NCBI RefSeq assembly: GCF_044324875.1
Contig: NZ_CP172185.1
DNA from: Escherichia coli
GTDB taxonomy: Bacteria > Pseudomonadota > Gammaproteobacteria > Enterobacterales > Enterobacteriaceae
Length of the DNA stretch: 64,000 nucleotides
Direction: 5' to 3' (one strand)
Part shown: positions 33,169 to 56,258 of the stretch, piece after piece
Layout of the letters: each line of letters begins with the position of its first letter
Numbering within the stretch: the first letter of the stretch is position 1
The notes under the pieces: model-generated
Database searches by the model: none
The model's input: the letters and a program-made list of their open reading frames with translations, nothing else
What the model was told of the DNA's origin: nothing
Position numbers and translations under genes: made by a program

Positions 33169-33701
33169 GTATTGTAAAAGAGGAGCACAAAGCCACGCTG
33201 CGTAAATGGCACGAAGAGTTGCAGGAAAAACGCGGCAATCGTGCCAGTCTGCGGCGTAGCACAACGGTTAATGATGTTTGTCTGTCAGAAGGGTTTCGTT
33301 CTCTGCTGATGCAGACCCACACTTTGTGGAAAATTGAAGCACAAGAGTGGCGTTTTACCGCACTGGCGCTGGTCGCCGCAGTTAGCGCCAATGTTAAAGC
33401 TATTGATGAACGGCAGCCTTTTGCCGCGCAGCTGGCGGCGGTAATGTCGGAGGGGCGTTTTACTCGCCTGTCGGCAGTAAAAACGCCTGATGATTTACTG
33501 CGTCAGTTACGTCGCGCGGTCAAATTATTAAATGGTTCCGTCAATCTTATCTCTTTGGCAGAAGATATTTTCCGCTGGTGCCAGGAGAGCGACGACCTGC
33601 TCAATCATCACCGCCGCCAGCAGCGGCCAACAGAATTTATCCGTATCCGCTGGGCGCTGGAATATTACCAGGCTGGCGACGCCGATAACGAACAAAATTA
33701 A
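33165..33701 (+). CDS. casB: Cascade small subunit Cse2/CasB
   Basis: 178 aa; start overlaps casA stop (ATGA). Confidence 0.85.
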   Translation: MSIVKEEHKATLRKWHEELQEKRGNRASLRRSTTVNDVCLSEGFRSLLMQTHTLWKIEAQEWRFTALALVAAVSANVKAIDERQPFAAQLAAVMSEGRFTRLSAVKTPDDLLRQLRRAVKLLNGSVNLISLAEDIFRWCQESDDLLNHHRRQQRPTEFIRIRWALEYYQAGDADNEQN

Positions 33702-33715
33702 TAAAGGACTATCTC

Positions 33716-34771
33716 ATGACGACATTTATTCAGCTTCATTTGTTAACCGCTTACCCTGCTGCCAACCTTAACCGTGATGACACCGGTGCGCCAAAAACTG
33801 TGGTACTGGGTGGAGCAACGCGTCTGCGCGTTTCCTCACAAAGTCTGAAACGTGCGTGGCGCACTTCTGCACTTTTTGAACAGGCACTGGCGGGCCATAT
33901 TGGTATTCGCAGTGGGCGTATTGCGCGTGAGGCGGCAACTATCCTGATTGAGAAAGGCATCGAAGAGAAAAAAGCCATCGAATGGGCGGCAAAAATTGCG
34001 GATTATCTTGGGAAAGCTAAAAACGACAAAAAACCAAAAGATCCGCTCACTAACGCCGAAACTGAACAGCTAGTCCATATCAGCCCGGCAGAATTTGACG
34101 CCGTAAAAGCGCTGGCCCATCAACTGGCCGAAGAAAAGCGCGCGCCAAAAGAGGAAGATCTCGCTTTGTTACGTAAAGATCGCATGGCGGTAGATATCGC
34201 TATGTTTGGTCGTATGCTGGCGAATAAACCCGAATTTAATGTTGAAGCCGCCTGCCAGGTCGCGCATGCATTTGGTGTCAGTGAAACGATTGTCGAAGAT
34301 GATTTTTTCACCGCCGTTGATGATTTGCGCCAGGCTTCTGAAGATGCCGGTGCCGGGCATCTTGGTGAAACCGGATTCGGTTCTGCGCTGTTCTACACCT
34401 ATATCTGCATCGATAAAGATCTGCTGGTCGAAAACCTCGGCGGTGACGAAGCGTTAGCTAATCAGACCTTGCGCGCCTTTACGGAAGCCGCACTTAAAGT
34501 CTCCCCAACCGGCAAACAGAACAGCTTTGCCAGCCGTGCCTACGCCTCCTGGGCGCTGGCAGAAAAAGGCACTGAACAACCACGCTCTCTGGCGGCGGCT
34601 TTCTATGAACCCATTAATGGCACCCGGCAGTTAGATGTGGCGGTGCAGCGTATTACAACGCTTCGCGAAAATATGAATACGGTCTATGAACAGAAGACCG
34701 AATGCGCAAGCTTTGACGTGATGAACAAACAGGGAAGCATGAAGGACGTGCTGGACTTTATCTGCGCGTAA
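33716..34771 (+). CDS. casC: Cascade backbone Cas7e/CasC
   Basis: 351 aa; position and size in the type I-E operon. Confidence 0.88.
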   Translation: MTTFIQLHLLTAYPAANLNRDDTGAPKTVVLGGATRLRVSSQSLKRAWRTSALFEQALAGHIGIRSGRIAREAATILIEKGIEEKKAIEWAAKIADYLGKAKNDKKPKDPLTNAETEQLVHISPAEFDAVKALAHQLAEEKRAPKEEDLALLRKDRMAVDIAMFGRMLANKPEFNVEAACQVAHAFGVSETIVEDDFFTAVDDLRQASEDAGAGHLGETGFGSALFYTYICIDKDLLVENLGGDEALANQTLRAFTEAALKVSPTGKQNSFASRAYASWALAEKGTEQPRSLAAAFYEPINGTRQLDVAVQRITTLRENMNTVYEQKTECASFDVMNKQGSMKDVLDFICA

Positions 34772-34781
34772 GGGGCGGCTA

Positions 34782-35528
34782 ATGAGCCAATATTTGATTT
34801 TTCAGCTTCATGGGCCAATGGCATCCTGGGGCGTCGATGCCCCCGGCGAAGTGCGTCATACCCATGAACTGCCTTCGCGCTCAGCATTGCTGGGGCTGCT
34901 GGCTGCCGGGGTAGGGATTCGGCGTGATGATACCGAACGATTAAACGCGTTTAACCGCCACTATTCACTGGTGGTTTGCGCCAGCCGTAACCCGCGCTGG
35001 GCACGGGATTATCACACGGTCCAGATGCCAAAAGAGGTGCGTAAAGCGCGTTATTTCAGCCGTCGCGAAGAGTTGAGCGCCCCTGATCTTCTGAGCGCGA
35101 TTATCTCCCGGCGCGACTACTACACCGATGCCTGGTGGATGGTGGCGGTGGCAACAACCCCCGATGCGCCTTACAGGCTTGAACAGTTGCAGGACGGTTT
35201 ACGTCATCCGGTTTTTCCGCTTTATCTGGGGCGAAAAAGTCATCCGCTGGCGTTACCACTTGCGCCGTTACTGCTCGAAGGCAACGCGTCTGATGTCTTA
35301 CGTAACGCATACCAACAGTATCAGGATAGTTTCCGCGAACTGAAAGTCTCACTCCCGAAACTTCAGGATGAATGCTGGTGGGAAGGGGAACACGACGGCC
35401 TGGTCGCGAGCAAAATATTACGTCGCCGGGATGTTCCTTTAAATCGTCAGCAGTGGCTGTTTGGGGAACGCACCATCAATCAGGGGCCGTGGCTCAGCAA
35501 GGAGGAACCATGTACCTCTCAAGAATAA
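34782..35528 (+). CDS. casD: Cascade Cas5e/CasD
   Basis: 248 aa; position and size in the type I-E operon. Confidence 0.85.
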   Translation: MSQYLIFQLHGPMASWGVDAPGEVRHTHELPSRSALLGLLAAGVGIRRDDTERLNAFNRHYSLVVCASRNPRWARDYHTVQMPKEVRKARYFSRREELSAPDLLSAIISRRDYYTDAWWMVAVATTPDAPYRLEQLQDGLRHPVFPLYLGRKSHPLALPLAPLLLEGNASDVLRNAYQQYQDSFRELKVSLPKLQDECWWEGEHDGLVASKILRRRDVPLNRQQWLFGERTINQGPWLSKEEPCTSQE

Positions 35529-36156
35529 CCTTACATACCGGCCAGCTTTTGCCTGCGCAGTTGCTGCATTTGGTGGATCGCGGTGAATATGTAATGCATC
35601 AGTGGCTGTGGGATCTTTTTCCTGGCGGCAAAGAAAGGCAATTTCTTTATCGTCGGGAAGAACTCCAGGGGGCGTTTCGCTTTTTTGTCCTGTCGCAGGA
35701 ACGCCCGGCGGAAAGTGATATTTTCACCATCGAATGCCGACCATTTGCGCCAGAGTTGCGTACCGGACAATCCCTTTGTTTCAACCTGCGGGCGAATCCA
35801 ACAATTTGTAAAGCGGGCAAACGCCACGACTTGCTGATGGAGGCGAAACGGCAGGTGAGGGGGCAGGTGGAAGGAAGTGATGTCTGGTTGCATCAACAAC
35901 AGGCGGCGCTGGACTGGCTGGCAGCGCAGGGGGAAAGAAGCGGTTTTACACTACTGGATACCTCGGTCGATGCCTACCGACAACAGCAACTGCGGCGGGA
36001 AAACTCCCGGCAACTGATCCAGTTCAGTAGCGTGGATTATACGGGGATGCTTACGGTCACCGATCCTGGGTTATTTCTGCAACGTCTCAGTCAGGGGTAT
36101 GGCAAAAGCCGGGCGTTCGGTTGTGGTCTGATGCTGATCAAACCCGGAGCAGAGGC

Positions 36157-36160
<4 letters not shown>
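35510..36160 (+). CDS. casE: Cas6e/CasE pre-crRNA endoribonuclease
   Basis: ORF 35372..36160; start set at ATG 35510 (MYLSRITL) after AGGAGG; overlaps casD end. Confidence 0.88.
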
Positions 36161-37370
<1,210 letters not shown>

Positions 37371-37466
37371 GTTAGACGTTCTTTAAAAATAAGGAAATGT
37401 TTGAATTTAGTTGGTAGATTGTTGATGTGGAATAAATTTGTTTAAAAACAGATATGTATGCTTAGT
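37371..37466 (+). promoter_or_regulatory. CRISPR leader for cas-adjacent array
   Basis: AT-rich 96 bp between cas2 stop and first repeat; contains AGTTGGTAGATTGT at 37409..37422. Confidence 0.75.
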
Positions 37467-37983
37467 GTGTTCCCCGCGCCAGCGGGGATAAACCGCTTTT
37501 GTTTCTGATTTCTACGCCTGTGGGTAAGTGTTCCCCGCGCCAGCGGGGATAAACCGGAGCAACTACTCGCAGCACAACAGGCAGGTAGGTGTTCCCCGCG
37601 CCAGCGGGGATAAACCGTTTTCTCTAATTACAGTGATTTTTCAAAATCCGTGTTCCCCGCGCCAGCGGGGATAAACCGCGATTCAAAAATAAAATGACGA
37701 CGGAGGAGGCGTGTTCCCCGCGCCAGCGGGGATAAACCGCCGTCGAAGTGACCATGCTCTTTCATTGTGATGTGTTCCCCGCGCCAGCGGGGATAAACCG
37801 AACACAGCGTAAAACCGTCGCAGCCATGCCGAGAGTTCCCCGCGCCAGTGGGGATAAACCGATTGGTCGGTTATGCATCCTGCTAACCAGATTGTGTTCC
37901 CCGCACCAGCGGGGATAAACCGTAATATTAGACTAATGTTTTTTTGTTGAGTTCGTGTTCCCCCGCCACTGCGGTAGAACTCC
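37467..37983 (+). CRISPR. Type I-E CRISPR array, 9 repeats / 8 spacers (repeat GTGTTCCCCGCGCCAGCGGGGATAAACCG; terminal repeat degenerate)
   Basis: Repeats start at 37467, 37528, 37589, 37650, 37711, 37772, 37833, 37894, 37955 (61-bp period); repeats 7 and 8 carry point changes; repeat 9 is GTGTTCCCCCGCCACTGCGGTAGAACTCC. Confidence 0.97.
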
Positions 37984-39293: not shown

Positions 39294-40202
39294 ATGGATC
39301 AAAAACGACTTACTCACCTGCGGCAACTGGAGGCGGAAAGCATCCACATTATTCGCGAGGTGGCGGCAGAATTCTCAAATCCGGTGATGCTCTACTCTAT
39401 CGGTAAAGATTCCAGCGTCATGCTGCATCTGGCGCGCAAGGCGTTTTATCCAGGTACGCTGCCTTTCCCGTTGCTGCATGTCGATACCGGCTGGAAATTC
39501 CGCGAGATGTATGAGTTCCGCGATCGTACGGCGAAAGCCTACGGCTGCGAGCTGCTGGTGCATAAAAACCCGGAAGGCGTGGCGATGGGGATTAATCCAT
39601 TCGTGCACGGCAGCGCGAAACATACCGATATTATGAAAACTGAAGGCCTGAAACAGGCGCTGAACAAATACGGTTTTGATGCCGCCTTCGGTGGTGCGCG
39701 CCGTGACGAAGAGAAATCCCGCGCTAAAGAGCGAATCTACTCTTTCCGTGACCGCTTCCATCGCTGGGATCCGAAAAATCAGCGCCCGGAGCTGTGGCAC
39801 AACTACAACGGGCAAATTAACAAAGGCGAAAGCATCCGCGTCTTCCCGCTCTCTAACTGGACCGAGCAGGATATCTGGCAATACATCTGGCTGGAAAATA
39901 TTGACATTGTTCCACTGTATCTCGCTGCGGAACGACCGGTTCTGGAACGCGACGGTATGTTGATGATGATTGATGACAACCGTATCGACCTGCAACCGGG
40001 AGAAGTGATTAAAAAACGGATGGTGCGTTTCCGTACGCTGGGCTGCTGGCCGCTGACCGGTGCGGTGGAGTCAAATGCACAAACACTGCCGGAAATCATC
40101 GAAGAGATGCTGGTTTCCACCACCAGTGAACGCCAGGGTCGCGTGATTGACCGCGACCAGGCGGGGTCTATGGAGCTGAAAAAACGTCAGGGGTATTTTT
40201 AA
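39294..40202 (+). CDS. cysD: Sulfate adenylyltransferase subunit 2
   Basis: 302 aa; PAPS-reductase-like fold ([12 protein letters not shown]). Confidence 0.96.
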
Positions 40203-40203
40203 G

Positions 40204-41631
40204 ATGAACACCGCACTTGCACAACAAATCGCCAATGAAGGCGGCGTCGAAGCCTGGATGATTGCGCAACAACATAAAAGCCTGCTGCGTTTTCTGACCT
40301 GTGGTAGCGTCGATGACGGCAAAAGTACCCTGATTGGTCGCCTGCTGCACGATACCCGCCAAATCTACGAAGATCAGCTCTCATCGCTGCATAACGACAG
40401 TAAACGTCACGGCACCCAGGGCGAAAAACTGGATCTGGCACTGCTGGTGGACGGCCTGCAAGCTGAGCGCGAACAGGGCATCACCATTGACGTGGCTTAC
40501 CGTTATTTCTCTACCGAGAAGCGTAAATTTATTATCGCCGATACCCCAGGGCACGAGCAGTACACTCGCAATATGGCGACTGGCGCATCGACATGTGAAC
40601 TGGCGATCTTACTGATCGATGCCCGTAAAGGCGTGCTCGATCAAACCCGTCGTCACAGTTTTATCTCCACACTGTTGGGGATCAAACATCTGGTCGTGGC
40701 GATCAACAAAATGGATCTGGTGGGTTACAGTGAAGAGACGTTCACCCGTATTCGCGAAGATTATCTGACGTTTGCCGGGCAGCTGCCGGGTAATCTGGAT
40801 ATCCGCTTTGTGCCGCTCTCTGCACTGGAAGGCGACAACGTGGCTTCGCAAAGTGAAAGTATGCCGTGGTACAGCGGTCCGACACTGCTCGAAGTGCTGG
40901 AAACCGTGGAGATCCAGCGAGTGGTGGATGCCCAGCCAATGCGCTTCCCGGTGCAGTACGTTAATCGCCCGAATCTCGATTTTCGTGGCTACGCCGGAAC
41001 GCTTGCCTCCGGTCGCGTGGAAGTCGGGCAACGTGTCAAAGTGCTGCCCTCTGGTGTGGAATCAAACGTCGCGCGGATCGTGACTTTTGATGGCGATCGC
41101 GAAGAAGCCTTTGCCGGAGAAGCGATCACCCTGGTGCTGACGGATGAGATCGACATCAGCCGTGGCGATCTGCTGCTGGCGGCAGACGAAGCGTTACCGG
41201 CTGTGCAGAGCGCGTCGGTGGATGTGGTATGGATGGCGGAACAGCCGCTTTCCCCAGGCCAGAGTTACGACATCAAAATTGCCGGTAAGAAGACGCGTGC
41301 TCGTGTTGATGGCATTCGTTATCAGGTTGATATTAATAACCTTACCCAACGCGAAGTTGAAAACCTGCCGCTGAACGGCATCGGCCTGGTGGATCTCACT
41401 TTTGACGAGCCACTGGTGTTAGATCGTTATCAGCAAAACCCGGTTACCGGTGGGCTGATTTTTATCGATCGCCTGAGCAATGTGACCGTGGGTGCCGGTA
41501 TGGTGCACGAGCCAGTTAGCCAGGCAACTACTGCGCCATCTGAATTCAGTGCATTCGAACTGGAATTGAATGCCCTGGTTCGCCGCCACTTTCCACACTG
41601 GGGCGCGCGCGATTTGCTGGGGGATAAATAA
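40204..41631 (+). CDS. cysN: Sulfate adenylyltransferase subunit 1 (GTPase)
   Basis: 475 aa; GTP-binding motifs [18 protein letters not shown]. Confidence 0.96.
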
Positions 41632-42236
41632 TGGCGCTGCATGACGAAAACGTCGTCTGGCATAGCCATCCGGTCACTGTGCAACAACGCGAGCTACACC
41701 ACGGTCATCGTGGTGTAGTGCTGTGGTTTACCGGCCTCTCCGGGTCCGGTAAATCAACGGTCGCCGGGGCGCTGGAGGAGGCGTTACATAAACTCGGCGT
41801 CAGTACGTATCTGCTGGATGGCGACAATGTTCGCCATGGATTATGCAGCGATCTCGGTTTTAGCGATGCCGATCGTAAAGAGAATATCCGTCGCGTCGGT
41901 GAAGTGGCGAATTTGATGGTTGAAGCCGGACTGGTGGTGCTGACCGCATTCATCTCGCCACACCGCGCCGAACGCCAGATGGTTCGCGAACGCGTAGGAG
42001 AAGGGCGCTTTATCGAAGTGTTTGTCGATACACCGCTGGCGATTTGCGAAGCCCGCGATCCAAAAGGCTTATATAAGAAAGCGCGTGCCGGTGAACTGCG
42101 TAACTTTACGGGAATAGATTCCGTTTACGAAGCGCCTGAATCGGCAGAAATTCATCTCAATGGTGAACAATTAGTAACAAATTTGGTACAGCAATTATTA
42201 GATCTGTTGAGACAGAACGATATTATCAGATCCTGA
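41631..42236 (+). CDS. cysC: Adenylylsulfate (APS) kinase
   Basis: 201 aa; P-loop GLSGSGKST. Confidence 0.96.
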
Positions 42237-42285
42237 GACACCACCGGGTTTCCATGCCCGGTTCGTCAAAGTAACAGGATCAAAT

Positions 42286-42609
42286 ATGCGTAATAGCCAT
42301 AACATTACACTAACAAATAACGACAGCCTTACTGAGGATGAAGAAACCACATGGTCACTGCCTGGTGCCGTGGTCGGTTTTATCTCCTGGTTATTTGCGC
42401 TGGCGATGCCGATGTTGATTTATGGCTCTAACACGCTGTTCTTCTTTATCTACACCTGGCCTTTCTTTTTGGCACTGATGCCTGTCGCGGTAGTGGTGGG
42501 GATTGCGCTGCATTCATTGATGGACGGAAAGCTACGCTACAGTATTGTTTTCACCCTGATGACAGTAGGCATTATGTTTAGCGCACTGTTTATGTGGCTA
42601 CTGGGCTAA
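42286..42609 (+). CDS. ygbE: Small inner-membrane protein
   Basis: 107 aa, hydrophobic; position between cysC and ftsB. Confidence 0.75.
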   Translation: MRNSHNITLTNNDSLTEDEETTWSLPGAVVGFISWLFALAMPMLIYGSNTLFFFIYTWPFFLALMPVAVVVGIALHSLMDGKLRYSIVFTLMTVGIMFSALFMWLLG

Positions 42610-42802
42610 TTTGTACTTTCTTGTCTCCTCTGTTCATAATTCAAACCGTAACTAATAATGAGATTATGTTCTGCACGCCCTGGGTATACGTAACAATGGA
42701 CAAATGTGGTACATTTGCCCGCGTTGTCGCGGTATCCCCAACAGAGGATGTAGAGTCATCTTCGGATGCATGGGATGATGATGCCGTTTTTCAGGGGGCA
42801 GG

Positions 42803-43114
42803 ATGGGTAAACTAACGCTGCTGTTGCTGGCTATTCTGGTCTGGCTACAGTATTCGCTGTGGTTCGGTAAGAACGGTATACATGACTATACCCGCGTCAA
42901 TGATGATGTGGCGGCACAGCAAGCTACAAACGCGAAACTTAAAGCGCGAAACGATCAACTTTTTGCCGAAATTGACGATCTCAATGGCGGCCAGGAGGCG
43001 CTCGAAGAGCGTGCGCGTAATGAACTCAGCATGACCAGGCCGGGCGAAACTTTTTATCGTCTGGTGCCTGACGCGTCGAAGCGCGCACAGTCTGCGGGGC
43101 AAAACAATCGATAA
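42803..43114 (+). CDS. ftsB: Cell division protein FtsB
   Basis: 103 aa; N-terminal TM + coiled coil. Confidence 0.92.
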
Positions 43115-43132
43115 ATCAGCCCAGGAATTAAC

Positions 43133-43843
43133 ATGGCAACCACTCATTTGGATGTTTGCGCCGTGGTTCCGGCGGCCGGATTTGGCCGTCGAATGCAAAC
43201 GGAATGTCCTAAGCAATATCTCTCAATCGGTAATCAAACCATTCTTGAACACTCGGTGCATGCGCTGCTGGCGCATCCCCGGGTGACACGTGTCGTCATT
43301 GCCATAAGTCCTGGCGATAGCCGTTTTGCACAACTTCCTCTGGCGAATCATCCGCAAATCACCGTTGTAGATGGCGGTGATGAGCGTGCCGATTCCGTGC
43401 TGGCAGGTCTGAAAGCCGCTGGCGACGCGCAGTGGGTATTGGTGCATGACGCCGCTCGTCCTTGTCTGCATCAGGATGACCTCGCGCGATTGTTGGCGTT
43501 GAGCGAAACCAGCCGCACGGGGGGGATCCTCGCCGCACCAGTGCGCGATACGATGAAACGTGCCGAACCGGGCAAAAATGCCATTGCTCATACCGTTGAT
43601 CGCAACGGCTTATGGCACGCGCTGACGCCGCAATTTTTCCCTCGTGAGCTGTTACATGACTGCCTGACGCGCGCTCTAAATGAAGGCGCTACCATTACCG
43701 ACGAAGCCTCGGCGCTGGAATATTGCGGATTTCATCCGCAGTTGGTCGAAGGCCGCGCGGATAACATTAAAGTCACGCGCCCGGAAGATTTGGCACTGGC
43801 CGAGTTTTACCTCACCCGAACCATCCATCAGGAGAATACATAA
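43133..43843 (+). CDS. ispD: 2-C-methyl-D-erythritol 4-phosphate cytidylyltransferase
   Basis: 236 aa; [10 protein letters not shown] nucleotide-binding motif. Confidence 0.95.
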
Positions 43844-44322
43844 TGCGAATTGGACACGGTTTTGACGTACACGCCTTTGGCGGTGAAGGCCCAATTATCA
43901 TTGGTGGCGTACGCATTCCTTACGAAAAAGGATTGCTGGCGCATTCTGATGGCGACGTGGCGCTCCATGCGTTGACCGATGCATTGCTTGGCGCGGCGGC
44001 GCTGGGGGATATCGGCAAACTGTTCCCGGATACCGATCCGGCATTTAAAGGTGCCGACAGCCGCGAGCTGCTACGCGAAGCCTGGCGTCGTATTCAGGCG
44101 AAGGGTTATACCCTGGGCAACGTCGATGTCACTATCATCGCTCAGGCACCGAAGATGTTGCCGCACATTCCACAAATGCGCGTGTTTATTGCCGAAGATC
44201 TCGGCTGCCATATGGATGATGTTAACGTGAAAGCCACTACTACGGAAAAACTTGGATTTACCGGACGTGGGGAAGGGATTGCCTGTGAAGCGGTGGCGCT
44301 ACTCATTAAGGCAACAAAATGA
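43843..44322 (+). CDS. ispF: 2-C-methyl-D-erythritol 2,4-cyclodiphosphate synthase
   Basis: 159 aa; IGHGFDVH zinc-site motif. Confidence 0.95.
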
Positions 44323-45348
44323 TTGAGTTTGATAATCTCACTTACCTCCACGGTAAACCGCAAGGCACCGGGCTGCTGAAAGCCAATCCGGAAGACTTTG
44401 TGGTGGTGGAAGATTTGGGCTTTGAGCCTGATGGTGAAGGTGAGCATATTCTGGTTAGAATCCTCAAAAACGGCTGCAATACCCGTTTTGTGGCGGATGC
44501 ACTGGCGAAATTCCTGAAAATTCATGCCCGTGAAGTCAGCTTCGCTGGGCAAAAAGACAAACATGCTGTTACGGAACAGTGGTTATGCGCTCGCGTGCCG
44601 GGCAAGGAAATGCCCGATCTGAGCGCCTTTCAACTGGAAGGCTGCCAGGTGCTGGAGTATGCGCGGCACAAGCGCAAGCTGCGTTTAGGCGCGCTGAAAG
44701 GTAACGCCTTTACCCTGGTTCTGCGCGAAGTGAGCAATCGCGATGACGTTGAACAACGTCTGATCGATATTTGCGTAAAAGGCGTGCCTAACTATTTTGG
44801 TGCCCAACGTTTTGGGATTGGCGGTAGCAACTTGCAGGGCGCGCTGCGCTGGGCGCAAACCAATACTCCGGTGCGCGATCGCAATAAACGGAGTTTTTGG
44901 TTGTCGGCAGCCCGCAGTGCGTTGTTTAATCAGATTGTTGCTGAGCGCCTCAAAAAAGCAGACGTTAATCAAGTTGTTGACGGCGATGCGCTACAATTAG
45001 CCGGACGTGGTAGCTGGTTTGTCGCAACCACCGAAGAACTGGCGGAATTACAGCGTCGCGTCAACGATAAAGAGCTGATGATAACCGCCGCATTGCCGGG
45101 CAGTGGCGAATGGGGAACTCAGCGTGAAGCGTTGGCATTCGAACAAGCAGCTGTCGCCGCAGAAACTGAATTACAAGCCTTACTGGTGCGCGAAAAAGTT
45201 GAAGCCGCGCGCAGAGCGATGCTGCTGTATCCGCAACAATTAAGCTGGAACTGGTGGGATGACGTCACCGTAGAAATCCGTTTCTGGCTTCCGGCGGGTA
45301 GTTTTGCAACCAGCGTTGTCAGGGAACTTATCAACACAACAGGTGATT

Positions 45349-45368
<20 letters not shown>
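44319..45368 (+). CDS. truD: tRNA pseudouridine(13) synthase
   Basis: 349 aa; start overlaps ispF stop. Confidence 0.93.
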
Positions 45369-46730
<1,362 letters not shown>

Positions 46731-46869
46731 AACGTGAGGAAATACCTGGATTTTTCCTGGTTATTTTGCCGCAGGTCAGCGTATCGTGAACATCTTTTCC
46801 AGTGTTCAGTATGGTGCCTTGCACGGTAATTATGTCACTGGTTATTAACCAATTTTTCCTGGGGGATAA

Positions 46870-48009
46870 ATGAGCGCGGGAAGCCCAAAATTCACCGTTC
46901 GCCGCATTGCGGCTTTGTCACTGGTTTCGCTATGGCTGGCAGGCTGTTCTGACACTTCAAATCCACCGGCACCGGTCAGCTCCGTTAATGGCAATGCGCC
47001 TGCAAATACCAATTCTGGTATGTTGATTACGCCGCCGCCGAAAATGGGAACGACGTCTACAGCGCAGCAACCGCAAATTCAGCCGGTACAGCAGCCACAA
47101 ATTCAGGCTACTCAACAACCGCAAATCCAGCCAGTACAGCCAGTAGCTCAGCAGCCGGTACAGATGGAAAACGGACGCATCGTCTATAACCGTCAGTATG
47201 GGAACATTCCGAAAGGCAGTTATAGCGGCAGTACCTATACCGTGAAAAAAGGCGACACACTTTTCTATATCGCCTGGATTACTGGCAACGATTTCCGTGA
47301 CCTTGCTCAGCGCAACAATATTCAGGCACCATACGCGCTGAACGTCGGTCAGACCTTACAGGTGGGTAATGCTTCCGGTACGCCAATCACTGGCGGAAAT
47401 GCCATTACCCAGGCCGACGCAGCAGAGCAAGGAGTTGTGATCAAGCCTGCACAAAATTCCACCGTTGCTGTTGCGTCGCAACCGACAATTACGTATTCTG
47501 AGTCTTCGGGTGAACAGAGTGCTAACAAAATGTTGCCGAACAACAAGCCAACTGCGACCACGGTCACAGCGCCTGTAACGGTACCAACAGCAAGCACAAC
47601 CGAGCCGACTGTCAGCAGTACATCAACCAGTACGCCTATCTCCACCTGGCGCTGGCCGACTGAGGGCAAAGTGATCGAAACCTTTGGCGCTTCTGAGGGG
47701 GGCAACAAGGGGATTGATATCGCAGGCAGCAAAGGACAGGCAATTATCGCGACCGCAGATGGCCGCGTTGTTTATGCCGGTAACGCGCTGCGCGGCTACG
47801 GTAATCTGATTATCATCAAACATAATGATGATTACCTGAGTGCCTACGCCCATAACGACACAATGCTGGTCCGGGAACAACAAGAAGTGAAGGCGGGGCA
47901 AAAAATAGCAACCATGGGTAGCACCGGAACCAGTTCAACACGCTTGCATTTTGAAATTCGTTACAAGGGGAAATCCGTAAACCCGCTGCGTTATTTACCG
48001 CAGCGATAA
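46870..48009 (+). CDS. nlpD: Murein hydrolase activator lipoprotein NlpD (LysM + degenerate M23)
   Basis: 379 aa; lipobox LAGCS; Gln/Pro-rich repeats; C-terminal M23-like domain; the rpoS promoter is known to lie within this gene (established knowledge, not resolved here). Confidence 0.95.
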
Positions 48010-48071
48010 TTCGGCGGAACCAGGCTTTTGCTTGCTAGTTCCGTCAAGGGATCACGGGTAGGAGCCACCTT

Positions 48072-49064
48072 ATGAGTCAGAATACGCTGAAAGTTCATGA
48101 TTTAAATGAAGACGCGGAATTTGATGAGAACGGAGTTGAGGTTTTTGACGAGAAAGCCTTAGTTGAAGAGGAACCCAGTGATAACGATTTGGCTGAAGAG
48201 GAGCTGTTATCGCAAGGGGCCACACAGCGTGTGTTGGACGCGACTCAGCTTTACCTTGGTGAGATTGGTTATTCGCCACTGTTAACGGCCGAAGAAGAAG
48301 TTTATTTCGCGCGTCGCGCACTGCGTGGAGATGTCGCTTCACGTCGCCGGATGATTGAAAGTAACCTGCGTCTGGTCGTGAAGATTGCCCGCCGTTATGG
48401 CAATCGTGGTCTGGCGCTGTTGGACCTGATCGAAGAGGGCAACCTGGGGCTGATCCGCGCGGTAGAGAAGTTTGACCCGGAACGTGGTTTCCGCTTCTCA
48501 ACATACGCAACCTGGTGGATCCGCCAGACGATCGAACGGGCGATTATGAACCAAACCCGTACTATTCGTTTGCCGATTCACATCGTAAAGGAGCTGAACG
48601 TTTACCTGCGAACCGCACGCGAGTTGTCCCATAAACTGGACCACGAACCAAGTGCGGAAGAGATCGCAGAGCAACTGGATAAGCCAGTTGATGACGTCAG
48701 CCGTATGCTTCGTCTTAACGAGCGCATTACCTCGGTAGACACCCCGCTGGGTGGTGATTCCGAAAAAGCGTTGCTGGACATCCTGGCCGATGAAAAAGAG
48801 AACGGTCCGGAAGATACCACGCAAGATGACGATATGAAGCAGAGCATCGTCAAATGGCTGTTCGAGCTGAACGCCAAACAGCGTGAAGTGCTGGCACGTC
48901 GATTCGGTTTGCTGGGGTACGAAGCGGCAACACTGGAAGATGTAGGTCGTGAAATTGGCCTCACCCGTGAACGTGTTCGCCAGATTCAGGTTGAAGGCCT
49001 GCGCCGTTTGCGCGAAATCCTGCAAACGCAGGGGCTGAATATCGAAGCGCTGTTCCGCGAGTAA
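48072..49064 (+). CDS. rpoS: RNA polymerase sigma factor RpoS
   Basis: 330 aa; sigma-70 family regions 2-4. Confidence 0.97.
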
Positions 49065-49080
49065 GTAAGCATCTGTCAGA

Positions 49081-49116
49081 AAGGCCAGTCTCAAGCGAGG
49101 CTGGCCTTTTTCTTTT
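49081..49116. terminator. Rho-independent terminator after rpoS (AAGGCCAG..CTGGCCTT hairpin + TTTTTCTTTT)
   Basis: Inverted repeat and T-run read directly; lies between convergent rpoS and the MarR-like gene. Confidence 0.75.
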
Positions 49117-49184
49117 GTTTGGGAAGTCGGTGTGTTTTGTCGCCTGGATAAGACTCGTCAGCGTCCTACCCGGCAATCAGCATC

Positions 49185-49592
49185 CTATTTGCTCATCATC
49201 TTGCGCACCAGCTGCATAAACAGCTCCTGCTCTTCTCCACTCAAACGCCCCAAAAATTCCGCATCCACACTGTCACCAATCGGTATCGCCGCAGCAAGTA
49301 CCTTTTCTCCTTCGGCAGTCAGCCAGACAAAGCGTCGCCGCTTGTCAGCGGCGTCATGTTCACGTCTGACTAAGCCACGATTTTCCATTCTTGCCAACAT
49401 TTCTGCCAGCGTTGCTTTGGTGCTGACTGCTGCTTCTATCAGTGCCGCCTGTTCGATACTAGGCTTATCAGCAATGGCGCGCATCACCGCGTACTGTGGT
49501 TTGGTGAGGTCAGGTAACTCGTGCTGCCAGCGAGCCGTGTGCTGCTGAAAAAGCTGTCGTAACTGATGGAACGCTTTATTTCGTAACGCCAT
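49185..49592 (-). CDS. MarR/SlyA-family transcriptional regulator
   Basis: ORF 49185..49625; probable start ATG 49592 (MALRNKAFHQL, GGAG 8 nt upstream), alternative 49625; winged-HTH core. Confidence 0.8.
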   Translation of the reverse strand: MALRNKAFHQLRQLFQQHTARWQHELPDLTKPQYAVMRAIADKPSIEQAALIEAAVSTKATLAEMLARMENRGLVRREHDAADKRRRFVWLTAEGEKVLAAAIPIGDSVDAEFLGRLSGEEQELFMQLVRKMMSK

Positions 49593-49707
49593 GTAAACTC
49601 CGGGCAAACTATCTGCCGCTATCATAGCGGTTTTTCAGTGACGAAGAAGATGTTGTTACTTTTCAGTGCTTGCCGCGATGAAAACAGAGGCGTATTTTAA
49701 TAATAAC

Positions 49708-49721
49708 GTTCGTATACGAAC
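49708..49721. promoter_or_regulatory. Perfect 14-bp palindrome GTTCGTATACGAAC, candidate operator of the MarR-like regulator
   Basis: Read directly 18 bp upstream of the UbiX-like gene start, in the divergent intergenic region. Confidence 0.45.
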
Positions 49722-49738
49722 AATTAAGAGAATAAACA

Positions 49739-50332
49739 ATGAGACTGATCGTCGGGATGACAGGGGCTACCGGTGCGCCTCTTGGGGTGGCATTACTGCA
49801 AGCGCTGCGGGAGATGCCGAATGTCGAGACTCATCTGGTGATGTCGAAGTGGGCGAAAACCACCATTGAACTGGAAACGCCTTACAGCGCTCGCGATGTT
49901 GCTGCCCTCGCAGACTTCAGTCATAACCCGGCGGATCAGGCGGCGACCATCTCCTCAGGTTCCTTTCGTACCGACGGCATGATCGTTATTCCGTGCAGTA
50001 TGAAAACGCTCGCCGGTATCCGTGCCGGTTACGCCGATGGCCTGGTAGGGCGCGCGGCGGACGTCGTGCTCAAAGAAGGCCGCAAACTAGTGCTGGTGCC
50101 GCGTGAAATGCCGCTTAGCACCATCCATCTCGAAAATATGCTCGCACTTTCACGCATGGGCGTGGCGATGGTGCCGCCGATGCCTGCCTTTTATAACCAT
50201 CCCGAAACGGTAGATGACATTGTCCACCACGTGGTAGCCCGCGTGCTGGATCAATTTGGCCTCGAACATCCTCACGCCAGGCGCTGGCAAGGATTGCCGC
50301 AGGCCCGGAATTTTTCTCAGGAGAATGAATAA
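49739..50332 (+). CDS. UbiX/Pad1-family flavin prenyltransferase (decarboxylase B subunit)
   Basis: 197 aa; MRLIVGMTGATGAP flavoprotein N-terminus. Confidence 0.88.
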   Translation: MRLIVGMTGATGAPLGVALLQALREMPNVETHLVMSKWAKTTIELETPYSARDVAALADFSHNPADQAATISSGSFRTDGMIVIPCSMKTLAGIRAGYADGLVGRAADVVLKEGRKLVLVPREMPLSTIHLENMLALSRMGVAMVPPMPAFYNHPETVDDIVHHVVARVLDQFGLEHPHARRWQGLPQARNFSQENE

Positions 50333-51759
50333 TGGCATTTGATGATTTACGCAGCTTTTTACAGGCGCTTGATGACCACGGCCAGTTACTGAAAATCAGC
50401 GAAGAGGTGAACGCGGAACCGGATCTGGCAGCCGCTGCCAACGCCACCGGACGTATCGGCGATGGTGCACCGGCGCTGTGGTTTGACAATATTCGCGGCT
50501 TTATCGATGCCCGCGTTGCAATGAACACCATCGGTTCCTGGCAGAACCACGCGATTTCCCTCGGCCTGCCGCCAAACACCCCGGTTAAAAAACAGATTGA
50601 TGAGTTTATCCGCCGCTGGGATAACTTCCCCATTGCCCCGGAGCGCCGCGCCAATCCAGCCTGGGCGCAGAACACCGTCGATGGCGACGAGATCAATTTG
50701 TTCGATATCCTGCCACTGTTTCGTTTAAACGACGGTGATGGCGGTTTCTATCTCGACAAAGCCTGCGTAGTTTCCCGCGATCCGCTCGACCCGGATAACT
50801 TCGGCAAGCAGAACGTCGGCATCTACCGCATGGAAGTGAAGGGCAAGCGTAAGCTCGGCCTGCAACCGGTGCCGATGCACGATATCGCTCTGCATCTGCA
50901 TAAAGCGGAAGAACGCGGTGAAGATCTGCCGATTGCGATCACACTCGGTAACGATCCGATCATCACCCTGATGGGGGCCACGCCGCTGAAATACGATCAG
51001 TCTGAGTACGAAATGGCGGGCGCGCTGCGCGAAAGCCCGTACCCGATCGCCACCGCCCCGCTGACCGGTTTTGATGTGCCGTGGGGTTCAGAAGTGATCC
51101 TCGAAGGGGTCATCGAAAGCCGTAAACGCGAAATCGAAGGGCCGTTCGGTGAGTTTACCGGCCACTACTCCGGCGGGCGTAACATGACCGTGGTGCGTAT
51201 CGATAAAGTCTCTTACCGTACCAAACCGATTTTCGAATCGCTCTATCTTGGTATGCCGTGGACCGAAATCGACTACCTGATGGGGCCTGCCACCTGCGTG
51301 CCGCTGTATCAGCAACTGAAAGCCGAGTTCCCGGAAGTGCAGGCGGTAAACGCCATGTACACCCACGGCCTGTTGGCGATTATCTCCACCAAAAAACGCT
51401 ACGGTGGCTTTGCCCGCGCGGTGGGCCTGCGTGCGATGACCACGCCGCACGGTCTGGGCTACGTGAAGATGGTGATTATGGTCGATGAAGACGTTGATCC
51501 GTTCAACCTGCCGCAGGTGATGTGGGCGCTCTCTTCGAAAGTGAACCCGGCAGGGGATTTGGTGCAGTTGCCGAATATGTCCGTGCTGGAACTCGACCCC
51601 GGCTCAAGCCCGGCCGGTATCACCGACAAGCTGATTATCGACGCTACCACGCCTGTCGCCCCGGACAACCGTGGTCACTACAGCCAGCCGGTGGTGGATT
51701 TACCGGAAACCAAAGCCTGGGCTGAAAAACTGACCGCTATGCTGGCCGCACGTCAATAA
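50332..51759 (+). CDS. UbiD-family (de)carboxylase (C subunit)
   Basis: 475 aa; start overlaps upstream stop (TAATG). Confidence 0.88.
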   Translation: MAFDDLRSFLQALDDHGQLLKISEEVNAEPDLAAAANATGRIGDGAPALWFDNIRGFIDARVAMNTIGSWQNHAISLGLPPNTPVKKQIDEFIRRWDNFPIAPERRANPAWAQNTVDGDEINLFDILPLFRLNDGDGGFYLDKACVVSRDPLDPDNFGKQNVGIYRMEVKGKRKLGLQPVPMHDIALHLHKAEERGEDLPIAITLGNDPIITLMGATPLKYDQSEYEMAGALRESPYPIATAPLTGFDVPWGSEVILEGVIESRKREIEGPFGEFTGHYSGGRNMTVVRIDKVSYRTKPIFESLYLGMPWTEIDYLMGPATCVPLYQQLKAEFPEVQAVNAMYTHGLLAIISTKKRYGGFARAVGLRAMTTPHGLGYVKMVIMVDEDVDPFNLPQVMWALSSKVNPAGDLVQLPNMSVLELDPGSSPAGITDKLIIDATTPVAPDNRGHYSQPVVDLPETKAWAEKLTAMLAARQ

Positions 51760-51769
51760 GGAGAACAAG

Positions 51770-52006
51770 ATGATTTGTCCACGTTGTGCTGATGAACAGA
51801 TTGAAGTGATGGCGAAATCGCCGGTAAAAGATGTCTGGACGGTCTACCAGTGCCAGCATTGCCTCTATACCTAGCGCGATACCGAACCGCTACGTCGCAC
51901 CAGCCGCGAACATTATCCCGAAGCGTTCCGCATGACGCAGAAAGATATTGATGACGCGCCGATGGTGCCGAGCATCCCGCCGCTGCTGGCGGCAGATAAG
52001 CGTTAA
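51770..52006 (+). pseudogene. Decarboxylase small (D) subunit-like ORF interrupted by in-frame amber codon
   Basis: ATG 51770 (SD GGAGAA upstream) opens a 78-codon frame MICPRCADEQ..CLYT * RDTEPLRRTSREHYPEAF..LLAADKR with TAG at 51872..51874; Cys-x2-Cys..Cys-x2-Cys zinc-ribbon pattern. Confidence 0.55.
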
Positions 52007-52015
52007 ATAAAAAAT

Positions 52016-52043
52016 GCCGGGTAGAGGCTTTGCTTTACCCGGC
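52016..52043. terminator. Bidirectional terminator hairpin (GCCGGGTA..TACCCGGC) between decarboxylase module and pphB
   Basis: Inverted repeat with A6 upstream (U-run for the minus-strand transcript) and T-rich downstream. Confidence 0.6.
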
Positions 52044-52047
52044 CTCA

Positions 52048-52704
52048 TTACTTTATTTTATAAAATGACAGCCGCCCGCTTTTCGGCGATCCGGTATCAA
52101 TATAAACCTGATTGGCAAATGTCTGGATATTTGTAAACATCATATGCCCGAAGATAAAACAGTCGGCACCGTTTATTTCTTTTAACTCGCCTTTGAGTGA
52201 TTTCTGCACGCGATCAACAGGCCAGAGTACCTCTCTTTCCGCTACTTCCTTGCCAAACTGATATTCATCACCCGGATAATCTGCATGTGCGATAACATAT
52301 TTTATAATATCGTTGGTGATTTCTATAATATGCGGAAGATGATGAAAGCGAAGCAACAGGTCTATTGCTTCTTTTTGTTCTGAATCATTTAACTCAAAGA
52401 ACCAGTCACCGCCACTGGCAAGCCACATATTGCCATCGCCAGTCGCGAAGGCATCAAGCGCCATTGCCTCGTGGTTGCCTTTAACCGATGTAAACCAGGG
52501 CTGGTTTAACAGGCGTAGCACGTTAAGACTATCCGGCCCACGATCAATATTATCGCCTACGGAAATAAGTAAGTCAGTTTCGGGGCAAAAAGAGAGTTGG
52601 TGTAAGCGGGATTGTAATAATTGATAATCGCCATGAATATCACCAACGGCCCATATATGGCGATAATTAAATGATTCTATTTTGTGATAGCGAATAGATG
52701 GCAT
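52048..52704 (-). CDS. pphB: Serine/threonine protein phosphatase 2
   Basis: ORF 52048..52716; start set at MPSIRYHK; metallophosphatase motifs GDIHG, GDNIDRG, GNHE. Confidence 0.88.
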   Translation of the reverse strand: MPSIRYHKIESFNYRHIWAVGDIHGDYQLLQSRLHQLSFCPETDLLISVGDNIDRGPDSLNVLRLLNQPWFTSVKGNHEAMALDAFATGDGNMWLASGGDWFFELNDSEQKEAIDLLLRFHHLPHIIEITNDIIKYVIAHADYPGDEYQFGKEVAEREVLWPVDRVQKSLKGELKEINGADCFIFGHMMFTNIQTFANQVYIDTGSPKSGRLSFYKIK

Positions 52705-52728
52705 TAATTTGAGCATTTTGGTTTGGAG

Positions 52729-53592
52729 TTAGTCTATTTTTTTTGAAATAATGGCGTTGATCTGTTTATCAGTAAATTGACCTTGGGCTTTGGCTTTATT
52801 TAACCAGAGCAACGCTTCTTCTTTATTTATGCCATTTCCATCAAGCCCCCAGGCATAAATTTGTCCTAAAGTAATTTGTGCAATAGGTAAGTTTTGAGTA
52901 GCAGCTTTCTCAAACCAGTATTTAGCCTGTCGTATATCTTTGGGAACGCCCTGACCATTAAAAAAAAGTGTCCCATAATTATATTGGCCGAGTCGCTGAC
53001 CCTTTTCTGCCGCTATTTTTAAGTGAGGGATAGCTTCAGCATACTTATTCTCTTGAATTCCGATAATCCCTAAGTTTGCATGTGCAATAGGATTGTCCTT
53101 CTGTACTGCTTTCTGAAGCCAATACTTGGCTTTGTTAATGTTTTGGAATTCCTGTGGGCCAAATTGATAAATATTCGCACAGTTTATTTGAGCTTGTTCA
53201 TTCCCTTTTTCTGCCGCTTTCTCATACCAGTATATCGCAATACGATAGTTAGGCCCCGTATTATCATATCCGTAATGATAAATCTGTCCTAAGTAAAATT
53301 CAGCTTCATCATAATTTTGCTTTGCTGCAAGGTTGAGCCAATAAAATGCTTTGTTTATATCCTTCACTGAAGGACTTTCAGATAGACCATTCAGGTATAT
53401 GAGTCCCATCACCGTTTGTGAGGCTTTATCGCCATGTTGAGCCTTGGCAATGATATCCTGCAGTTTATTTCGTGATTCCTTCGTAATATTATTTAATACT
53501 TGCTCGGGAATATCAAAATGTGAAGGGGTATCTTCGGCGCCTATTGCAGTGGCGCTAATTATTAAAATTATTGATGCAATCGTTATTCTCAT
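52729..53592 (-). CDS. Sel1-repeat (TPR-like) secreted protein
   Basis: 287 aa; signal peptide; repeated Sel1-like units (LGxxYxxG..A..WYxKAA); gene is visibly AT-rich. Confidence 0.75.
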   Translation of the reverse strand: MRITIASIILIISATAIGAEDTPSHFDIPEQVLNNITKESRNKLQDIIAKAQHGDKASQTVMGLIYLNGLSESPSVKDINKAFYWLNLAAKQNYDEAEFYLGQIYHYGYDNTGPNYRIAIYWYEKAAEKGNEQAQINCANIYQFGPQEFQNINKAKYWLQKAVQKDNPIAHANLGIIGIQENKYAEAIPHLKIAAEKGQRLGQYNYGTLFFNGQGVPKDIRQAKYWFEKAATQNLPIAQITLGQIYAWGLDGNGINKEEALLWLNKAKAQGQFTDKQINAIISKKID

Positions 53593-53696
53593 TTTTTTCT
53601 TGAATGTTTTGTTCTTAATAGTGTTTATTTTACTCCTTTTTTATCTATCGGATAAGAGATATATGAGCCCCGAAGTTTAATCGGGGCTCATTAATA

Positions 53697-56258
53697 TTAT
53701 ACCAGACTCTTCAACCGATAAATCCACTCCAGCGCCTGGCGCGGAGTGAGTGAATCCGGGTCGAGATTTTCCAGCGCTTCCACCGCGGGCGAGGTTTCTT
53801 CCGGCACTGAAAGCAGCGACATCTGCGTGCCATCGACCTGTGTCGCGGCGGCATTCGGCGAAATGCTCTCCAGCTCGCGCAGTTTTTGCCGCGCACGCTT
53901 GATCACCTCTTTCGGCACACCTGCCAGTGCAGCAACCGCCAGGCCGTAGCTTTTGCTCGCCGCGCCATCCTGCACGCTGTGCATAAAGGCAATGGTGTCG
54001 CCGTGCTCCAGTGCATCGAGATGCACGTTGGCGACGCCTTCCATTTTCTCCGGTAACTGGGTCAGCTCGAAATAGTGGGTAGCAAACAACGTCAACGCTT
54101 TAATCTTATTCGCCAGATTTTCCGCGCACGCCCACGCCAGCGACAGACCATCGTAAGTGGACGTCCCGCGCCCAATCTCATCCATCAGCACCAGACTGTA
54201 CTCGGTGGCGTTATGCAGAATATTGGCGGTTTCGGTCATCTCCACCATAAAGGTTGAACGCCCGGATGCCAGATCATCCGCTGCTCCTACGCGCGTGAAG
54301 ATACGGTCGATCGGCCCAATCTCGACTTTTTGCGCCGGTACGTAGCTGCCGATATACGCCATCAGCGCAATCAACGCGGTCTGGCGCATATAGGTACTTT
54401 TACCGCCCATATTCGGACCGGTAATGATCAACATGCGACGCTGCGGCGACAGGTTCAGCGGGTTGGCGATAAATGGCTCGTTCAGTACCTGTTCAACCAC
54501 CGGATGGCGGCCTTCGGTGATGCGAATACCCGGTTTATCAATGAAGGTCGGGCAGGTGTAGTTCAGGGTATAGGCCCGTTCCGCCAGGTTCACCAGCACG
54601 TCGAGTTCCGCTAGCGCGCTCGCGCTCTGTTGCAACGCTTCCAGATGCGGCAACAGCAGGTCGAACAACTCTTCATAAAGCTGTTTTTCCAGTGCCAGTG
54701 CTTTGCCTTTTGAAGTGAGAACTTTGTCTTCGTACTCTTTTAGCTCTGGAATAATGTAGCGCTCGGCGTTTTTCAGCGTCTGGCGACGCATGTAATTGAT
54801 GGGTGCCAGATGGCTTTGTCCACGGCTGATCTGAATGTAATAACCATGAACCGCGTTAAAGCCGACTTTCAGCGTGTCCAGGCCAGTACGTTCACGCTCG
54901 CGGACTTCCAGACGCTCCAGATAATCGGTCGCGCCGTCAGCCAGCGCGCGCCACTCATCCAGCTCTTCGTTATAGCCCGATGCGATAACACCACCGTCGC
55001 GTACCAGCACTGGCGGTGTTTCGATGATTGCCCGCTCCAGCAGATCGCGCAGCTCGGCAAACTCGCCCATTTTTTCACGCAGCGCCTGTACCGGAGCGCT
55101 ATCGACATTTTCTAATTGCGCACGCAGCTCCGGCAATTGCTGGAAAGCGTGACGCATACGGGCCAGATCGCGCGGGCGAGCAGTTCGTAAAGCCAGACGC
55201 GCCAGAATACGTTCCAGGTCTCCGACCTGACGCAGCACCGGCTGTAGCCCGGCGGTGAAATCCTGCAATGCGCCAATAGTTTGCTGGCGCTCAAGTAACA
55301 CGCGGGTATCGCGCACTGGCATATGCAGCCAGCGTTTCAGCATACGACTACCCATCGGCGTTACAGTGCAGTCGAGCACTGAAGCCAGCGTATTTTCCGC
55401 ACCGCCCGCCAGGTTCTGGGTAATTTCCAGGTTACGACGCGTCGCGGAATCCATAATGATGCTGTCCTGCTCACGTTCCATAGTGATAGAACGAATATGC
55501 GGCAGAGTCGTACGTTGGGTATCTTTCGCATACTGCAACAGACAACCGGCAGCACAAAGTCCGCGCGGCGCGTTCTCGACGCCAAAACCGACCAGATCGC
55601 GGGTGCCAAATTGCAGATTCAACTGCTGGCGCGCGGTGTCGATTTCAAACTCCCACAGCGGACGACGGCGCAGACCGCGACGACCTTCAATCAGCGACAT
55701 CTCAGCAAAATCTTCTGCATATAGCAGTTCCGCCGGATTAGTGCGTTGCAGTTCTGCCGCCATCGTTTCCCGGTCAGCCGGTTCGCTCAGGCGAAAACGA
55801 CCGGAACTGATATCCAGCGTCGCGTAGCCGAAACCTTTACTGTCCTGCCAGATAGCCGCCAGCAGATTGTCCTGGCGCTCTTGTAACAGGGCTTCATCGC
55901 TGATGGTGCCTGGCGTAACGATACGCACAACTTTGCGCTCAACTGGACCTTTGCTGGTCGCCGGATCGCCAATTTGTTCGCAGATGGCAACGGACTCGCC
56001 CTGATTCACCAGTTTGGCGAGGTAGTTTTCCACCGCATGGTAGGGGATCCCCGCCATCGGGATCGGCTCTCCCGCCGAAGCACCGCGTTTGGTCAGTGAA
56101 ATATCCAGCAGTTGCGACGCGCGTTTTGCGTCGTCATAAAACAGTTCATAAAAATCACCCATCCGGTAAAACAGCAGGATCTCGGGATGCTGGGCTTTCA
56201 GCTTGAGATATTGCTGCATCATGGGCGTATGGGCATCGAAATTTTCTATTGCACTCAT
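53697..56258 (-). CDS. mutS: DNA mismatch repair protein MutS
   Basis: 853 aa; Walker [10 protein letters not shown]. Confidence 0.97.

Follow-up and report, generated by a model that had tools for sequence, protein, structure and literature searches.

We analysed a 64,000-nt stretch of Escherichia coli DNA (RefSeq assembly GCF_044324875.1, contig NZ_CP172185.1), hereafter the window, and focused on the variable interval between rpoS and mutS. The gene order is rpoS - hosA - vdcBCD - pphB - Sel1-repeat gene - mutS (Table 1). According to the open reading frame (ORF) list and NCBIfam, hosA, vdcBCD, pphB and the Sel1-repeat gene account for the full ORF content of 49065-53696. We are highly confident in the best explanation as a whole, namely that the segment is the E. 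coli hosA-vdcBCD locus (aliases kpdBCD, ecdBCD and slyA-pad1-yclC), the 2.9-kb insert of the type found beside rpoS in O157 and in enteropathogenic E. coli (EPEC; 'O157/EPEC-type'). In the window, the last gene of this locus is interrupted by an amber codon.

An earlier note, made from the sequence of this DNA, had described a MarR-like gene divergent from UbiX-like, UbiD-like and small-subunit genes, in place of the ygbI-N genes of K-12 and within an interval that is polymorphic among E. coli lineages. The ORFs and NCBIfam matches bear out the gene arrangement. The K-12 mutS-rpoS interval reads pphB-ygbI-ygbJ-ygbK-ygbL-ygbM-ygbN, and all of these ygb genes are missing from the window interval, as the note had said. 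The polymorphism is likewise on record: a mosaic rpoS-mutS interval and a 2.9-kb hosA-pad1-yclC insert beside rpoS are documented in PMC4209514 and, through its citation of Herbelin 2000, in PMC5491219, which dates the insert to 2000 at the latest. The window has the O157:H7-type arrangement, with slyA(hosA)-kpdBCD beside rpoS and neither ygbN (o454) nor other ygb genes. An o454/ygbN-negative interval corresponds to 'pattern I' of the rpoS-mutS arrangements (PMC4209514), and the window contrasts in this respect with K-12 and with the pattern-IV strain 7/2. The Sel1-repeat gene between pphB and mutS is a further presence/absence polymorphism of the interval. E. coli Ecol_316 has it in the same order, a Pseudocitrobacter metagenome-assembled genome has it at 91% identity, and O157 Sakai and K-12 lack it.

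The longest version of the MarR ORF reaches 49625. We set its start at 49592 (MALRNK), as in the RefSeq homologues and PDB 8AGA. The product aligns end-to-end with 8AGA, 'Transcriptional regulator HosA' (E=4e-81; 129/134 residues identical, ~96%; 5 substitutions), and six more PDB entries are also solved HosA structures. Pfam PF01047 (MarR) was found on a protein identical to window HosA, and the NCBIfam matches were to general MarR-type models only, all below their cut-offs. The O157:H7 Sakai annotation of the same genes reads hosA, then kpdB, kpdC and kpdD, and the RefSeq annotation agrees. With a winged-helix MarR domain, divergence from a decarboxylase operon beside rpoS and a 14-bp operator in the leader, the regulator is identified by its sequence and setting as HosA, of the MarR/SlyA family. 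Asp110, given as a ligand-binding residue of HosA in a preprint (bioRxiv 10.1101/2024.04.24.590444), is kept in window HosA, as read from its sequence, beside an E111A difference. Binding to DNA that is relieved by 4-hydroxybenzoate has been published for the UMN026 and EPEC HosA proteins (PMC6261655, PMC6694116 and, in its account, the preprint). As the same preprint summarises Roy & Ranjan 2016, HosA represses both itself and the hydroxyarylic acid decarboxylase (HAD) operon, and 4-hydroxybenzoate is the effector that releases HosA and induces the HAD operon several-fold.

The three + strand genes are, by family assignment, a non-oxidative hydroxyarylic acid decarboxylase B/C/D set, which agrees with the three-component phenolic/hydroxyarylic-acid decarboxylase architecture proposed earlier. 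All three products score above their NCBIfam cut-offs. VdcB matches NF041206 (312.8 bits, cut-off 290) and PDB 1SBZ, the O157:H7 Pad1 structure (E=3.6e-129). VdcC matches NF041204 over residues 4-469 (789.2 bits, cut-off 650) and chain A of PDB 7AE4 (E=3e-160), and its identity to the Ecol_316 protein rounds to 100%. VdcD matches NF041205 on residues 3-34 (57 bits, cut-off 30), as well as the 7AE4 complex from Sedimentibacter. A complete subunit D has ~70-78 aa and two CXXC motifs; in the window both CXXC motifs are present and 34/78 aa are left. Judged on its sequence, the locus thus belongs to the VdcBCD/KpdBCD/EcdBCD family by descent and encodes no complete enzyme.

Table 1. Features of the rpoS-mutS interval in the window, in order of position.
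Feature	Coordinates	Strand	Remarks
rpoS	48072-49064	+	330 aa, intact; upstream anchor of the variable interval; full-length match to Sakai RpoS (identity rounds to 100%)
Terminator-like hairpin	49078-49111		3' of rpoS
hosA	49185-49592	-	Intact, 135 aa; 4-hydroxybenzoate-responsive repressor of the MarR/SlyA family
hosA-vdcB divergent control region	49593-49738		146 bp
Palindromic element CCGCTATCATAGCGG	49616-49630		15 nt; 24-38 nt upstream of the hosA ATG; flagged as hairpin
Direct repeat TTTTCAGTG	49632-49640 and 49660-49668	+	9 nt, two copies
Predicted vdcB promoter	49670-49698	+	-35 TTGCCG 49670-49675; 17-nt spacer; -10 TATTTT 49693-49698
vdcB (= kpdB, ecdB, pad1)	49739-50332	+	UbiX-type flavin prenyltransferase making the prenylated flavin mononucleotide (prFMN) cofactor
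vdcC (= kpdC, ecdC, yclC)	50332-51759	+	UbiD-family decarboxylase catalytic subunit; intact
vdcD (= kpdD, ecdD)	51770-52006	+	Small zinc-ribbon subunit gene; pseudogene here
Mutated Dcm site in vdcD	51870-51874		CCTGG in reference alleles, CCTAG in the window (G51873A); - strand CCAGG -> CTAGG
pphB	52048-52716	-	Serine/threonine phosphatase 2; NCBIfam PRK09968, 457 bits
Sel1/TPR-repeat gene	52729-53592	-	287 aa; Pfam Sel1
mutS	53697-56258	-	Far end of the interval

Codon 35 of vdcD is an in-frame TAG (W35*; 51872-51874), which leaves a product of 34 aa. Ecol_316, Sakai and strain 7/2 all have TGG here, and W35 is conserved in ShdD of PDB 7AE4. The earlier note was right that a small-subunit gene belongs to the set, and missed that the amber at codon 35 makes it incomplete. 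All complete RefSeq E. coli genomes tested differ from the window by one base at this codon, as would be expected if the TAG were a sequencing or assembly error in the window. We give this virtually no weight, since three independent NCBI assemblies (GCA_044691885.1, GCA_027274645.1 and GCA_900482385.1; 99.98-100% identical over 4.5 kb) carry the same TAG and effectively refute it. The identical 34-aa product is also called on 222 contigs, and wherever these name a source it is E. coli. The amber codon is real.

The consequences for the enzyme can be judged from homologues, in which VdcC is inactive or nearly so when VdcD is absent (Marshall et al., PMC8379154). In that study VdcD is a zinc ribbon with 59% of its residues in the interface, salt bridges link its R36 and E39 to VdcC, and only the C-terminal tail is dispensable, its deletion barely affecting activity. 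The 34-aa product of the window keeps four Cys (C3, C6, C27, C30) and loses W35, R36 and E39. Because VdcC needs VdcD in the studied homologues and the truncation removes the conserved W35-R36-x-x-E39 segment, the decarboxylase is probably inactive in this lineage. An objection to this is that the fragment retains all zinc-binding Cys and that the tail is dispensable in the homologue, so that it may have residual function. The operon could even still be functional, either with the zinc-ribbon fragment activating VdcC or with low-level amber read-through supplying full-length VdcD. All four Cys do precede the stop, but the stop removes W35 together with the equivalents of the two residues that salt-bridge VdcC, from a protein that lies mostly in the interface. 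Other amber lineages have in addition gained vdcC frameshifts, as expected of a dead operon, and we regard a functional operon as unlikely.

The mutated base lies within a Dcm site. From this sequence context, G51873A is what deamination of a 5-methylcytosine on the - strand produces; the classic lacI amber hotspots arise by changes of this class (PMC12606429, on Coulondre et al. 1978). The amber occurs in three flanking contexts (ygbN downstream; pphB-mutS; pphB-Sel1-mutS), and at least five divergent module alleles of E. coli carry it (loci L088-L094). It is a rare allele: on three backgrounds, it had no exact match among complete RefSeq E. coli genomes. Recombination from one origin might also have put the same amber on different backgrounds, as mosaicism and horizontal transfer are known to occur in the rpoS-mutS region (PMC4209514). 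However, variant sites flank the mutated base closely (8 nt upstream, 19 nt downstream) and differ among the amber alleles. To explain this by one origin, several conversion events would be required, each with a tract of less than ~27 nt, and recurrent mutation is by far the more parsimonious explanation. The O157-like amber allele L089 is also near-identical to the Sakai TGG allele, from which it differs at 2/2822 positions, and far from the window, from which it differs at 106. Finally, deamination of 5-methylcytosine predicts precisely this transition, CCAGG -> CTAGG (PMC12606429). With these points against it, a single origin is quite improbable, and the vdcD amber looks like a natural 5-methylcytosine deamination hotspot.

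Some amber lineages have an intact hosA and a frameshifted vdcC (131+330 aa or 202+276 aa products; L088 1564-2990, L094 1564-2990 and L090 1574-2990). In these lineages, the sequences indicate an operon decaying around a retained regulator. A more speculative idea, which we consider doubtful, is that the W35 amber is a recurrent Dcm-hotspot knockout of a phenol-producing decarboxylase in unrelated lineages. Such a knockout would sometimes be favoured, for example by avoiding toxic phenol, with hosA and the operator kept for other roles of HosA. If true, a natural population would here show the classic lacI kind of amber hotspot at work on a niche-adaptive operon.

The module itself is widespread. 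Of 5426 complete E. coli genomes, 2417 carry it at 94-98% DNA identity to the window, and the best match to the module allele of the window among these 5426 RefSeq genomes is 98.1%. Against the same genomes, the best identities along window 39294-56258 are 99.2% for cysD-rpoS, 98.1% for hosA-vdc and 98.3% for mutS. None of these genomes is a close representative of the window lineage. In mutS most of them reach just 90-95% identity to the window, in keeping with what is known of mosaicism and horizontal transfer in this gene. A scan of one genome per species yielded 80 loci that encode a HosA relative (59-98% identity). In most of these species loci, hosA is divergent from vdc(B)CD beside rpoS, usually with mutS nearby as well. 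The genera with the module include Escherichia, Citrobacter, Salmonella, Klebsiella, Enterobacter, Kluyvera and Kosakonia, and also Rahnella. From this distribution, hosA-vdcBCD beside rpoS looks ancestral in the Enterobacteriaceae, and K-12 seems to have lost it.

The divergent control region contains GTTCGTATACGAAC, a perfect 14-bp palindrome (49708-49721) that the earlier note had located exactly and taken for a plausible MarR operator. The note put it 18 bp upstream of the first decarboxylase gene; it does lie before that gene, with 17 nt between it and the vdcB ATG (49739). The palindrome is unique in the window, as no second HosA site was found in the 64 kb at <=2 mismatches to GTTCGTATACGAAC. 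Perfect palindromes of 14 bp are not unusual per se, with five in the window against 3.7 expected from shuffles. The significance of GTTCGTATACGAAC comes from its position, its conservation and published binding data, not from palindromy alone.

Cao et al. (PMC6261655) reported a 14-bp palindromic HosA transcription factor binding site that is shifted in electrophoretic mobility shift assays (EMSA) and released by 4-hydroxybenzoate, with a dissociation constant (KD) for the ligand of 4.74 uM. The binding was reproduced in PMC6694116, in which close analogues of 4-hydroxybenzoate do not release HosA. HosA and its palindrome are already in use in EMSA, in biolayer interferometry (BLI) and as a 4-hydroxybenzoate biosensor part (PMC6261655). 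In the machine-read Table S1 of that paper, oligo DNA-HosA-F0, a UMN026-derived probe, matches window 49687-49745 but for two single-base discrepancies, and another oligo contains the exact 14-mer. By this sequence match GTTCGTATACGAAC is the published HosA binding site, and the operator proposed earlier is conserved at 79/80 species loci.

We compared 82 operator sequences, made up of those 79 loci, the window, Ecol_316 and Sakai. All 82 agree at positions 2-5 and 10-14; at position 1, 77 have G and the other 5, all from Rahnella, have A. The four central positions vary by transitions only. In most species the operator lies 15-19 nt before the vdcB ATG. The resulting pattern, GTTCG-N4-CGAAC, is in sequence terms that of a dimeric winged-helix site, with contacted half-sites and a free spacer.

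A simple strict scan of 49000-52200 listed no sigma-70 promoter. The predicted vdcB promoter, which agrees with the consensus at 8/12 positions, was derived from conservation: the TTG and TAnnnT columns ('cTTG' and 'gTA..tT') are conserved 17 nt apart in the 80-species intergenic alignment. The predicted vdcB transcription start would then be near 49705, and the operator at about +3 to +17. This placement agrees with the published position of the operator, since Roy & Ranjan 2016, as summarised in bioRxiv 10.1101/2024.04.24.590444, put the palindromic site downstream of the transcription start, suggesting a roadblock. No RNA family was found in 48000-54000 in Rfam at gathering thresholds, so these families offer no riboswitch or small RNA (sRNA) explanation for the vdcB leader. 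On the other side of the control region, the core CTAT(C/G)ATAG of CCGCTATCATAGCGG is conserved across genera in the same alignment. CCGCTATCATAGCGG probably holds the hosA -10 (TATGAT, - strand, 49621-49626), and may otherwise be the binding site of another protein.

Several points count against this account of the operator. The machine-read Table S1 (PMC6261655) shows an extra T in the bold site (GTTTCG...) of some oligos, where the text says 14 bp. The mapping of the operator and of the transcription start rests on secondary summaries together with conservation analysis. In addition, the single operator would lie ~95-110 nt upstream of the predicted hosA start, so that the promoter model leaves the reported autorepression unexplained.

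The 9-nt direct repeat TTTTCAGTG is probably a chance occurrence. Two or more copies are reached in 24/100 shuffles of the whole window, and the second copy is unconserved in the intergenic alignment, even within Escherichia. We therefore rejected it as a regulatory element. The earlier note had both copies and the second start (49660) right, and gave 49631 for the first, which starts at 49632. The second copy occupies the position (~49650-49663 in the window) equivalent to an operator-like site of other genera. That site, GATCGTGTACGAAC and variants, was found in ~38/80 species, 56-57 bp upstream of the main operator and ~72-81 nt before the vdcB (or vdcC) ATG. The carriers include Klebsiella, Kluyvera, Enterobacter, Leclercia, Lelliottia, Pluralibacter and Pseudocitrobacter (loci L008, L012, L018, L021-L023, L027-L029, L033, L037, L040-L056, L058-L060, L063-L066 and L070). 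In the 80-species comparison, it was not found in Escherichia, Citrobacter or Salmonella. By its position, the GATCGTGTACGAAC site would overlap the hosA -35 region.

Put together, these features suggest the following mechanism. A HosA dimer would bind GTTCG-N4-CGAAC, which lies between the transcription start and the ribosome-binding site of vdcB and close to both, and from there would block transcription of vdcBCD. Binding of 4-hydroxybenzoate to HosA would release it from the DNA. VdcB would then make prFMN, and a VdcC-VdcD complex would decarboxylate 4-hydroxybenzoate and related hydroxyarylic acids to phenols. In the window, the HosA switch appears to be retained, with hosA, the operator, vdcB and vdcC intact, and the decarboxylase is most likely inactive through W35*.

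HosA might instead act here mainly as a global SlyA-like regulator of motility and virulence, with the adjacent decarboxylase genes incidental. The first description of HosA, in EPEC, was indeed of a protein that regulates motility and flagellin expression (Ferrandiz 2005, cited by PMC5491219 and bioRxiv 10.1101/2024.04.24.590444), and hosA is still intact where vdcD, and sometimes vdcC too, is broken. Yet the sole operator match in the window is the site before vdcB; regulator, operator and operon are co-conserved in the sampled Enterobacteriaceae genera and Rahnella; and the effector is the substrate of the enzyme. The two roles are also compatible and not mutually exclusive. We consider a mainly global role rather unlikely, and favour HosA as the local switch of vdcBCD.

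The experiments that the earlier note had proposed, EMSA and the response to hydroxybenzoate, are already published for near-identical alleles (PMC6261655, PMC6694116 and, as reported there, bioRxiv 10.1101/2024.04.24.590444). Binding and 4-hydroxybenzoate release come from PMC6261655, and de-repression from Roy & Ranjan 2016 as that preprint summarises it. The evidence supports the interpretation given in the note as right and as already known. Regulator, operator, effector, enzyme family and rpoS-mutS polymorphism have all been published, and the locus matters little as a discovery. Our comparison adds a cross-genus operator logo, in which GTTCG/CGAAC are invariant and the 4 bp between them are free. 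It also yields a conserved promoter, which lends support to the roadblock model of the literature. A further addition is the second operator-like site of Klebsiella, Enterobacter and Kluyvera, which is absent in Escherichia. For annotation and phenotype prediction there is a caution: the presence of 'kpdBCD' is no guarantee of decarboxylase activity, as the same Dcm-site amber is found in this and several unrelated lineages.

Elsewhere in the window, an IS21-family element lies between cysH and cas3 (26239-28657, +), with an istA-like 548-aa ORF and an overlapping 332-aa ORF. Just upstream of it is an imperfect tandem repeat (26125-26246) with a 23/47-nt period and ~2.4-4.3 copies. A type I-E CRISPR-Cas operon follows at 28809-37080, in which cas3, cas7/casC and cas1e were identified. 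After this operon comes a CRISPR array (37466-37922) of at least eight repeats of GTGTTCCCCGCGCCAGCGGGGATAAACCG with a 61-nt period.

The closest known system is the HosA/HAD operon of E. coli UMN026, EPEC E2348/69 and O157:H7, which has the same genes in the same order beside rpoS. Its 14-bp operator is identical in the window, and window HosA is ~96% identical to the crystallised EPEC protein. The window differs from these operons by the amber at vdcD codon 35, and from Sakai also by the Sel1-repeat gene between pphB and mutS, which it shares with Ecol_316. Among regulators of other systems, PcaV is a protocatechuate-responsive MarR repressor that, like HosA, is aromatic-acid-responsive and binds a palindromic operator. 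PcaV of Streptomyces coelicolor (PDB 4FHT) is the nearest solved MarR other than HosA (E=6.6e-15), and differs from it in low identity, another effector and another pathway, which is ring cleavage and not decarboxylation.

The prFMN-dependent phenolic acid decarboxylases VdcCD/ShdCD and BsdBCD of Sedimentibacter, Bacillus subtilis and Streptomyces have the same three-gene B/C/D architecture. The roles are divided in the same way: a UbiX-type protein makes the cofactor, a UbiD-type protein is the catalytic subunit, and a zinc ribbon with four Cys is the activator. Their subunit D is only distantly related in sequence to window VdcD. The bsdBCD genes of B. subtilis are under the LysR-type regulator BsdA, not a divergent MarR repressor. 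A MarR-UbiX-UbiD trio is also found in the BagL/BagM/BagN (FevM/K/L) proteins of Streptomyces bagremycin/ferroverdin clusters, which gave the top NCBIfam matches for HosA (BagL_FevM, 91.7 bits) and VdcB (BagM_FevK, 344 bits). Because all scores are below the trio cut-offs (230, 420 and 1000 bits), the window genes are not members of this trio, whose genes are biosynthetic and not catabolic or detoxifying. The similarity nevertheless suggests that the HosA/VdcB locus and BagL/M/N share an ancestral MarR + UbiX + UbiD cassette.

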